From the sequence record MT446422.1: a stretch of 64,000 nucleotides of DNA; one strand, 5' to 3'. How positions within the stretch are numbered: the first letter of the stretch is position 1; each line of letters begins with the position of its first letter. This document shows, piece after piece, positions 14,706-16,283 of this stretch. The translations under genes and the position numbers were made by a program. The notes below the pieces were generated by a model that worked only from the letters and a program-made list of their open reading frames with translations, was not told the DNA's origin and made no database searches. This DNA comes from Escherichia virus TH57.

Positions 14706-15610
14706 TGAAGAAAATTATTCTGACTGTAGGTTGCCCTGGTTCTGGCAAGAGTACCTGGGCCCGCGAATTCATCGCCAAAAACCCTGGTTATTTTAACGTT
14801 AACCGCGATGATTATCGTCAATCCATTATGGGTCATGAAGAACGTGATGAATACAAATACACCAAGAAGAAAGAAGGCATCGTAACCTGTATGCAGTTTG
14901 ATGTTGCAAAGGGTATTTTATATGGCGGTGATTCTGTTAAAGGTGTAATTATTTCAGACACTAACCTGAATCCTGAACGTCGTCTGGCATGGGAAACTTT
15001 TGCCAAAGAACACAATTGGAAAGTTGAATATAAAGTATTTGATGTTCCTTGGACTGAACTGGTTAAACGCAACAATCGCCGTGGCCCAAAAGCGGTACCA
15101 ATTGATGTTCTGCGTTCCATGTATGGTCATATGCGTACCTTCCTTGGTCTTCCGGTTTATAAAGGAACTCCTGGCCAACCAAAAGCAGTCATTTTTGATG
15201 TTGATGGTACTCTGGCTAAAATGGTGGACCGTAGCCCTTATGACCTTGAAAAATGTGATACCGATATCATCAATCCAATGGTCGTTGAACTGTCCAAGAT
15301 GTATGACAAACAGGGTTATCAGATTATTGTCGTCAGCGGACGGGAATGTGGAACTGAAGAAGACCCAATGAAATATTATCGTATGACACGCAAGTGGGTC
15401 GAGGACTTCGCACAGGTGCCGTTGGTTATGCAGTGTCAACGAGTACAAGGTGACGACCGTAAAGATGACGTTGTTAAGGAAGAAATCTTCTGGGAAAAAA
15501 TTGCTCCACACTTTGATGTTAAATTAGCCGTTGACGATAGGCAAAATGTTGTCGAGATGTGGCGTCGTATTGGTGTTGAATGCTGGCAGGTCGCATTTGG
15601 CGACTTTTGA
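14702..15610 (+). CDS. pseT: polynucleotide 5'-kinase / 3'-phosphatase
   Basis: 302 aa; P-loop [12 protein letters not shown] phosphatase motif [10 protein letters not shown]; near-identical over long stretches to T4 Pnk as recalled. Confidence 0.95.
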
Positions 15611-16249
15611 TTTACAATTATCAAAATGATACCGTTTCATATTAGGACCTGCTCCAGTTTTACCACAATGAGGGCAGGTCTTTTTATCAAAAACACGTCC
15701 CCTATTAGCATCGCCAATTTTAGATTTGGTGCTTTCTTTACATGGTCTAAAATTGGAATCAATCCATGCTTGGTTTGCGGAACGTTTTTCATTAAATGAT
15801 TTTAGTGCTTCTTTTGTAAATTTTACGCCAGTTTTTGTTTTAGATATTTTGGCCTTAGTTGTTTCGGTGATTTCTTGGAGAGCACGTTTATCTTTCATCA
15901 ATTGAATTGATTCGGGTTTATGCTTTTTCCCTTTCATTCCAGATGATTGAATTCTATTGTTTAGGTAATCTCGCTTTACCCAACCGAATAATTTATTATT
16001 CTGCCGACGACCATCTGGTGATATAGTCATCATATAGGCAGCATATTTCAATCCTTTATGTTCCGGATTAATTTTTACCAATAGTTGATGTGCTAGATAA
16101 TGCTCTTCCGGCGTTAAATCAACTCGGTTTTCTTTTGTATCTGGTCCGCCTAAACATTGAGGAACAACATGGTGAGATTCTTTGTATCCAGTCAATTTTC
16201 TAGATTTGGCTCGGTTCATTAAATTCTCATATATTAAAGCATAATTCAT
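15524..16249 (-). CDS. HNH homing-endonuclease-like protein
   Basis: 242 aa from Met 14 of track ORF 15524..16288; HNH motif [30 protein letters not shown]; C-terminal Cys cluster CPHCGK...NCKSKVAKC; opposite strand to flanking early genes; 3' end overlaps the pseT 3' end by ~87 nt. Confidence 0.7.
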
Positions 16250-16275
16250 TGTATGTCCTCTTTGGTGATATACTA

Positions 16276-16283
16276 TATTTATA
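16276..16283 (-). promoter_or_regulatory. T4 late promoter (TATAAATA) for the HNH gene
   Basis: Minus-strand TATAAATA ~25 nt upstream of the HNH ATG, followed by SD AAAGAGGA. Confidence 0.5.

Follow-up and report, generated by a model that had tools for sequence, protein, structure and literature searches.

A predicted Mob-type homing endonuclease gene antisense between pseT and cd.4 of Escherichia virus TH57

The pseT–cd.4 junction

The DNA analysed here (the window: 64 kb of Escherichia virus TH57, a T4-like phage of the genus Gaprivervirus; MT446422.1) contains an open reading frame (ORF) of 241 codons on the minus strand between pseT, coding for polynucleotide 5'-kinase/3'-phosphatase, and cd.4, which is followed by the rest of the cd cluster. 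This ORF most probably represents a free-standing homing endonuclease gene of the Mob type, carried on a cassette of about 700 bp which lies in late, antisense orientation exactly between the stop codon of pseT and the start codon of cd.4, and whose product is predicted to target pseT. All neighbouring genes from pseT.3 through cd are located on the plus strand. The ORF is convergent with pseT, with an overlap of exactly 87 nt (15524–15610). The ORF, together with a predicted late promoter and a Shine-Dalgarno sequence, makes up the cassette (Table 1). The motif TATAAATA at about –10, which is characteristic of late genes of the T4 type, precedes the endonuclease gene and predicts late expression; it occurs 19 times in the window, as compared to 4.3 occurrences expected from shuffled sequences.

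An earlier note, made from the sequence alone, had described the gene as running opposite to its flanking genes, as equipped with a late promoter and Shine-Dalgarno sequence of its own, and as overlapping the 3' end of pseT convergently by about 87 nt, and all of this was borne out. It had also assigned the gene to positions 15524–16283 and its product a length of 242 amino acids. The end at 15524 is correct, the protein comprises 241 amino acids, and position 16283 marks where the promoter motif ends on its outer side, beyond the ORF.

Table 1. Features of the pseT–cd.4 region of Escherichia virus TH57 (positions refer to the window)
Feature	Position	Strand	Basis or remark
pseT, polynucleotide 5'-kinase/3'-phosphatase; predicted target gene	14702–15610	+	ORF and orthologue annotations
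Endonuclease ORF, 241 amino acids plus stop (predicted Mob-type HNH homing endonuclease)	15524–16249	–	Stop codon 15524–15526, ATG 16247–16249
Non-conserved C-terminal tail, residues 214–241 plus stop, antisense of the pseT 3' end	15524–15610	–	Orthologue comparison, substitutions, model
CCHC zinc-finger-like motif, residues 192–212, CPHC-x12-HFDNC	15614–15676	–	Alignment and model
Helical NUMOD3-type DNA-binding repeats, residues ~104–185	15695–15940	–	Pfam NUMOD3; model helices 112–182, high confidence
HNH catalytic motif, residues 26–54, HH-x13-N-x8-H-x3-H	16088–16174	–	Alignment of 60 homologues
Shine-Dalgarno sequence AAGAGGA	16256–16262	–	Read from sequence; GAGG to ATG spacing 7 nt
T4-type late promoter motif TATAAATA	16276–16283	–	26 nt before ATG; predicted
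Perfect copy of the CAAGTNGTNGARATGTGG of carrier-less pseT (Q-V-V-E-M-W codons), right edge of cassette	16286–16303	+	2 nt upstream of late promoter
Insert of the carriers, missing in empty-site relatives, ~700 bp	15611–16310		Alignment; anchor spacing 763 nt versus 62 nt
Recoded pseT 3' tract, strictly linked to presence of the endonuclease gene; predicted to be an immune or co-converted allele	15538–15609	+	All 12 fixed differences
Terminator-like hairpin AGGTCGC-ATTTG-GCGACTT, then TTTGATTT (T-rich run), at pseT end	15588–15606	+	Consensus match
cd.4, right-hand neighbour	16311–16508	+	ORF and orthologue annotations

A Mob-type HNH protein

The deduced protein matches PHROG 655, annotated as 'homing endonuclease' (E = 3e-63), and the product of T4 mobE (tblastn; 31.6% identity over residues 1–218, E = 2e-23), i.e., it shows the homology to MobA–E that characterizes the Mob family of T4. 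A tblastn search detected homologues in 1,063 of 50,697 phage records. Alignment of 60 homologues showed N41, H50 and H54 to be invariant, and H26 and H27 to be at least 90% conserved; the motif H26-H27...N41...H50...H54 thus provides the catalytic histidine, the structural asparagine and the metal-binding histidine typical of the HNH superfamily. With a score of 22.0 bits, Pfam NUMOD3 (PF07460) exceeds its gathering cut-off of 20.4, and a precomputed PF07460 match exists for most members of the clade. All four residues of the motif C192-x2-C195-x12-H208-x3-C212 are invariant across the 60 homologues. In the AlphaFold model (mean predicted local distance difference test score, pLDDT, of 83), a strand-strand-helix unit at the N-terminus is predicted with confidence, followed by helical repeats; a β-hairpin and a helix form a small C-terminal unit at the CCHC motif (pLDDT about 90–95), and confidence is low after residue 213. 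The reading of the gene product as an HNH protein with a zinc-finger-like cysteine cluster near its C-terminus, already proposed in the earlier note, thus agrees with family assignment and residue conservation.

I-HmuI is an intron-encoded HNH nicking endonuclease of phage SPO1 that combines HNH chemistry with NUMOD-type DNA-binding modules, and the protein described here resembles it in having an HNH motif and NUMOD3-type repeats. However, of the two enzymes that the earlier note had named for comparison, MobE and I-HmuI, only MobE was retrieved. The HNH motifs of IscB and McrA, aligned locally, were the only matches in a sequence search of the PDB, and I-HmuI was matched neither in this search nor in either of the two fold searches. 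The protein is accordingly predicted to be a MobE-like HNH endonuclease of the Mob type, and not of the I-HmuI type.

The gene belongs to a known kind and has been annotated before. VR25 gp208, recorded as 'homing endonuclease; similar to T4 MobE', has the same amino acid sequence (100% identity), while VR7ORF236w ('putative mobile nuclease') and SP18 gp235 show 99.2% and 98.3% identity, respectively; the orthologues in these three phages share site, orientation and the 87-nt overlap with the window gene. Because of these annotations, and since the gene fits the textbook picture of free-standing endonucleases in the T4 family, it carries little weight as a discovery. The phage itself is a mosaic isolate distinct from its annotated relatives; across the region, TH40 is the nearest relative (93.5% identity), and SP18, VR7 and VR25 are 91–92% identical.

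Presence, absence and replacement at the junction

Eight carriers of the gene were compared, namely, the window phage and seven relatives from the database. At least eight other Gapriverviruses (VR26, VR20, EAWsc9, M719, ECML-359, CJ20, YenP8 and TH15) have an empty site which reads GACTTTTAATGAATAAT; here, the stop codon of pseT overlaps the start codon of cd.4 (TAATGA), and the ~700 bp are absent. The gene is thus free-standing, being located between a pseT stop and a cd.4 start that abut in the empty sites. The same direct join of pseT and cd.4 is found in Dhakavirus JS98, and a comparable one (TGATG) in the Moonviruses Moon and CF1, so that presence/absence polymorphism is also seen between Moonvirus KM16, which carries an orthologue, and Moon and CF1. 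The precise empty sites, with the ancestral overlapping stop and start codons that also occur in JS98 and Moon, favour insertion over repeated exact deletion. Comparison of the junction downstream of pseT with that of relatives devoid of the gene therefore supports the idea of the earlier note that this is a mobile insertion; occupancy of the site in all close relatives and the lack of an HNH-family match, which it had named as findings that would speak against the idea, were not observed. Its statement that the site is unoccupied in T4 is correct in so far as there is no endonuclease gene, but the position is taken by cd.5.

Two more types of occupant were identified. In MN01 (L003, 1408–1605) and DK-13 (L015, 3908–4108), pseT is directly followed by an ORF resembling T4 cd.5 (PF25744, T4_Y13H; E = 1.7e-30); a duplication of cd.4, considered as an explanation of this extra ORF, was rejected on the basis of this match. 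In P896, the segment corresponding to window positions 15611–16310 (L004, 1456–2175) harbours a seg-like gene in sense orientation, coding for a protein with GIY-YIG and NUMOD3 domains and provided with its own TATAAATA. The pseT gene of P896 retains the recoded cluster typical of HNH carriers (see below), and its right junction, TGGAAAMCCTATGA, is shared with the carriers, which points to displacement of one endonuclease gene by the other at a single site. Replacement of endonuclease genes has been described at other T4-type loci, where SegH and Hef took the places of mobC and mobE. Altogether, four states of the junction occur: empty, cd.5, antisense HNH gene, and sense GIY-YIG seg gene. Such a four-state junction offers a convenient natural system to study the turnover of endonuclease genes and to find new sequence-specific nicking or cutting enzymes.

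Among the eight carriers, the cassette (15611–16310) is 97.7–99.6% identical, whereas its flanks are mosaic, with identities of 68–99%; the flanks of the window are often closest to those of phages without the gene. All eight copies of the ORF are intact. Within codons 1–213, 19 variable codons show silent changes only and four show changes of the amino acid, indicating purifying selection.

As for the mosaic structure of pseT itself, the 3' half of the gene (15101–15523) in the window phage, TH40, VR25 and VR7 shows only about 68–74% identity to other Gapriverviruses; this allele resembles that of the Dhakaviruses JS98 and JS10 (86–87% identity) and also occurs, with 95.7% identity, in the empty-site phage TH15. 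A donor tract brought in together with the endonuclease gene was considered and rejected, since the Dhakavirus-like allele also occurs in TH15.

A recoded pseT 3' end and its association with the gene

When the eight carriers were compared with nine non-carriers, all 12 fixed differences fell within positions 15538–15609, i.e., the last 24 codons of pseT, and none to the right of the insert. Non-carriers read GAY GAC CGN NNN CAA GTN GTN GAR ATG TGG (D-D-R-x-Q-V-V-E-M-W), whereas carriers read GAY GAT AGG CAA AAY GTT GTC GAG ATG TGG, which changes DDR(S/T)Q to DDRQN; besides, a histidine codon four codons before the pseT stop is replaced by one for phenylalanine, and the stop codon itself changes from TAA to TGA. 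KM16 is identical to Moon and CF1 up to the same aspartate codons and then diverges in a like manner, with GAT AGA and the replacement of histidine by phenylalanine. Among 811 records with a match to the pseT 3' end, identity to the recoded tract reaches 94% or more only in HNH-carrying ones; P896 has 92%, and all others 80% or less. The tract thus behaves like a linked flanking marker of the co-conversion type. We infer that this is the pattern which double-strand-break repair would generate if the cut occurred at or to the left of about 15538–15562 and if the carrier allele were resistant. The predicted cleavage target would lie around 15535–15562.

The wider clade points to the same gene. 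Genomic context was inspected in seven lineages, comprising the window, KM16 (70% identity by BLASTP, 67% by tblastn), the 366-kb Erwinia jumbo phage Kaldavass (63%), and four metagenomic contigs (56–63%) that represent 4 of the 24 further clade members (proteins P0002–P0026, with KM16's own, P0004, excluded). In all seven, the endonuclease gene is convergent with, and abuts, the 3' end of a polynucleotide kinase gene (Pfam AAA_33 and HAD_PNKP), while the right-hand neighbours vary, being cd.4, a homologue of ORF234c, or unrelated small ORFs. Since the kinase 3' end is the only flank common to the lineages, recognition presumably lies there. The expression signals are likewise retained: TATAAATA or CATAAATA precedes the orthologues in KM16, Kaldavass, L024, L026 and L027, and AAGGAG is present at the position equivalent to that of the Shine-Dalgarno sequence in KM16, Kaldavass, L024 and L026.

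A target-like sequence next to the endonuclease promoter

A sequence resembling the presumed target is also found at the opposite end of the cassette. The CAAGTNGTNGARATGTGG consensus is perfectly conserved in pseT of 14 out of 14 genomes that have neither of the two endonuclease genes (HNH or seg), among them T4, JS98 and Moon. In the pseT genes of carriers, it has two to three mismatches in the ten HNH carriers with a detectable match, and no match within three mismatches was found in pseT of the four metagenomic carriers. The copy beside the late promoter is the only match without mismatches in the 64-kb window, where 0.04 matches with up to two mismatches are expected from shuffled sequences. 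All eight carrier Gapriverviruses have this copy, KM16 has it with two mismatches, and Kaldavass and L024 have it in partial form (V-V-x-M-W). The promoter-adjacent candidate operator element reads CAAGTAGTGGAGATGTGG. The promoter-side copy may have been left behind by an ancestral insertion within pseT, or it may serve as an operator like that of I-TevI. As a separate observation, the Q-V-V-E-M-W codons at 15545–15562 (+) and the copy at 16286–16303 (+) form an imperfect direct repeat that brackets the pseT 3' end and the cassette.

Proposed mechanism and alternative explanations

In the mechanism we propose, late transcription of the endonuclease gene would start at its own TATAAATA promoter. 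When a carrier infects a cell together with a relative lacking the gene, the enzyme would bind DNA by means of its NUMOD3 helices and CCHC zinc finger, and would nick or cut the pseT gene of the other phage near the codons for D-D-R-x-Q-V-V-E-M-W, a conserved phosphatase motif, about 50–75 nt before the pseT stop. Recombinational repair on the carrier template would then copy in the cassette together with the recoded pseT 3' end, which would no longer be a target. This yields specific predictions for an uncharacterised Mob enzyme, namely, a candidate target (pseT DDRxQVVEMW), a candidate immune allele, and a candidate operator.

Several points weigh against this reading. The Pfam HNH profile scores 13.1 bits, below its cut-off of 21.4, and the literature search retrieved no paper characterising the protein and none on a homing endonuclease associated with pseT or polynucleotide kinase. 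Cleavage activity, homing, the exact target, the timing of expression and the role of the promoter-side copy are predictions from sequence. The differences in the pseT tract could be plain hitch-hiking donor sequence rather than a sign of immunity, and Kaldavass keeps GAC CGC at the aspartate and arginine codons, so that there is no universal immunity signature. The divergent segment at 15101–15523 is a mosaic exchange inside the enzyme gene that is unlinked to the endonuclease gene. The more distant contigs L025–L027 lack the promoter-proximal repeat. A 15-mer shuffle test conducted within single lineages was significant for the window only (5/300), with a weak repeat in KM16 and Kaldavass and none in L024–L027; the search with the consensus pattern is, however, stronger evidence for the repeat than this test.

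The overlap with pseT could be thought to have a function of its own, the tail of the protein aiding in DNA binding, or the convergent arrangement letting pseT and the endonuclease gene influence each other by antisense or translational regulation. The overlap is indeed kept in all eight carrier Gapriverviruses, and there is a hairpin at the end of pseT; nevertheless, we consider such a role extremely unlikely. The conserved part of the protein ends with ...RYHF(D/N)NCK in the window, KM16, Kaldavass and the four metagenomic contigs, and in each lineage the N-C-K codons are located at, or a few nucleotides from, the stop codon of the polynucleotide kinase gene on the opposite strand. The tails of the orthologues past this motif comprise 26, 9, 4 or 1–2 amino acids and are unrelated in sequence, and other Mob homologues align only up to residue 213–220. 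Within the 28-codon tail, every substitution among the eight copies alters the endonuclease protein and none is silent in that frame, while those inspected are silent in pseT (e.g., AAT/AAC, both coding for Asn); it is therefore pseT that sets the sequence. The tail is moreover predicted to be disordered (pLDDT 50–60). A functional extension was rejected on these grounds. Because the conserved protein ends at N-C-K, at the pseT stop, the overlap is regarded as incidental read-through; the Gaprivervirus lineage has no stop codon at this point, and translation therefore runs on into antisense pseT.

Two other explanations concern the origin and target of the gene. A mobile Mob-type gene might instead recognize cd.4 or the pseT/cd.4 junction, with the recoded pseT tract merely hitch-hiking as donor DNA. 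Insertion exactly at the junction would fit this, as would the fact that many endonucleases cut their own insertion site, which is then disrupted by the insertion, and the same site also attracted the seg gene of P896. We nonetheless judge it very unlikely: the right-hand neighbours differ in the seven lineages and the kinase 3' end is their sole common flank, there is not one fixed difference to the right of the insert, and the junction itself is variable among empty genomes (TAATGA, TGATG, or TAATGG followed by cd.5). That the endonuclease is vertically inherited and domesticated or defunct, its patchy occurrence resulting from deletion and ordinary recombination and its persistence perhaps from late antisense damping of pseT or exclusion of competitors, is likewise unlikely. 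Genomes of the T4 family are highly mosaic irrespective of endonucleases, for many mob and seg genes of T4 activity has never been demonstrated (PMC2988022), and a late antisense transcript would enter pseT. This scenario is, however, at odds with precise empty sites that share the ancestral overlapping stop and start codons with JS98 and Moon, with a cassette far more uniform than its flanks, with intact ORFs under purifying selection in all eight copies, and with the recurrence of the same arrangement of cassette and kinase gene in three or more genera.

A variant of the proposed mobile cassette, which we put forward only tentatively and regard as possible rather than probable, is that the mobile unit is larger, about 740–770 bp (~15538/15545 to 16303), and in effect inserted inside pseT at the Q-V-V-E-M-W codons. 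It would carry the last 20–24 codons of pseT in recoded, cleavage-immune form and, directly upstream of the late promoter, an intact half-site of the target through which the endonuclease could repress its own gene. Since such an element would bring its own replacement pseT codons, the target gene would stay intact. If this were true, the clade would consist of free-standing endonucleases specific for polynucleotide kinase genes, forming an intron-less, 'exon-carrying' type of homing element with autoregulation resembling that of I-TevI.

Comparison with characterised endonucleases

MobE of T4 is the closest characterised relative. It introduces a strand-specific nick in nrdB, at some distance from the place where its gene is inserted, and its spread is accompanied by co-conversion of flanking sequence; the gene is located between nrdA and nrdB, lacks a promoter of its own and is co-transcribed with nrdA in sense orientation (PMC2790892). 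Over the 218 aligned residues (31.6% identity), the two proteins share an N-terminal HNH region (HHxxP...GG...N...EH...H) followed by a C-terminal DNA-binding region, and both genes are free-standing and intergenic within a cluster of nucleotide metabolism genes. The window gene differs from mobE in its antisense orientation, in the late-promoter motif that precedes it and in its association with pseT instead of nrdB; its endonuclease activity is predicted from sequence. A precedent in T4 for antisense placement is segD, a free-standing GIY-YIG gene which is located antisense to genes 23 and 24 and has no identifiable promoter (PMC2988022). Like the window gene, segD is a free-standing endonuclease gene running opposite to its neighbours, but it belongs to another nuclease family, and a late-promoter motif is present only in the window gene. 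I-TevI has an operator resembling its homing site that extends over its own late promoter (PMC2988022), to which the match to the presumed target beside the late promoter of the window gene is comparable. However, I-TevI is an intron-encoded GIY-YIG enzyme, and an operator role of the copy in the window is conjectural.

Further observations on the region

The loop of the terminator-like hairpin at the end of pseT holds the carrier-specific phenylalanine codon. The hairpin might keep early transcription from entering the endonuclease gene in antisense direction. Empty alleles have a CCCATGGG palindrome in its place. A search for a second Mob paralogue in the 64-kb window was negative. The minus strand carries 15 of the 19 TATAAATA motifs, 14 of them within 34635–58519 (34.6–58.5 kb); this segment probably is the late-gene region, with the late genes on the same strand as the endonuclease gene. 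Mosaicism is also evident at some distance from the junction. The cd.2/cd.1 region (17671–18235) shows about 77% identity to VR25 and VR7, and 95–97% to all other relatives, while the two ORFs upstream of pseT (14001–14701) are 76.6% identical to those of phages 212 and P479.

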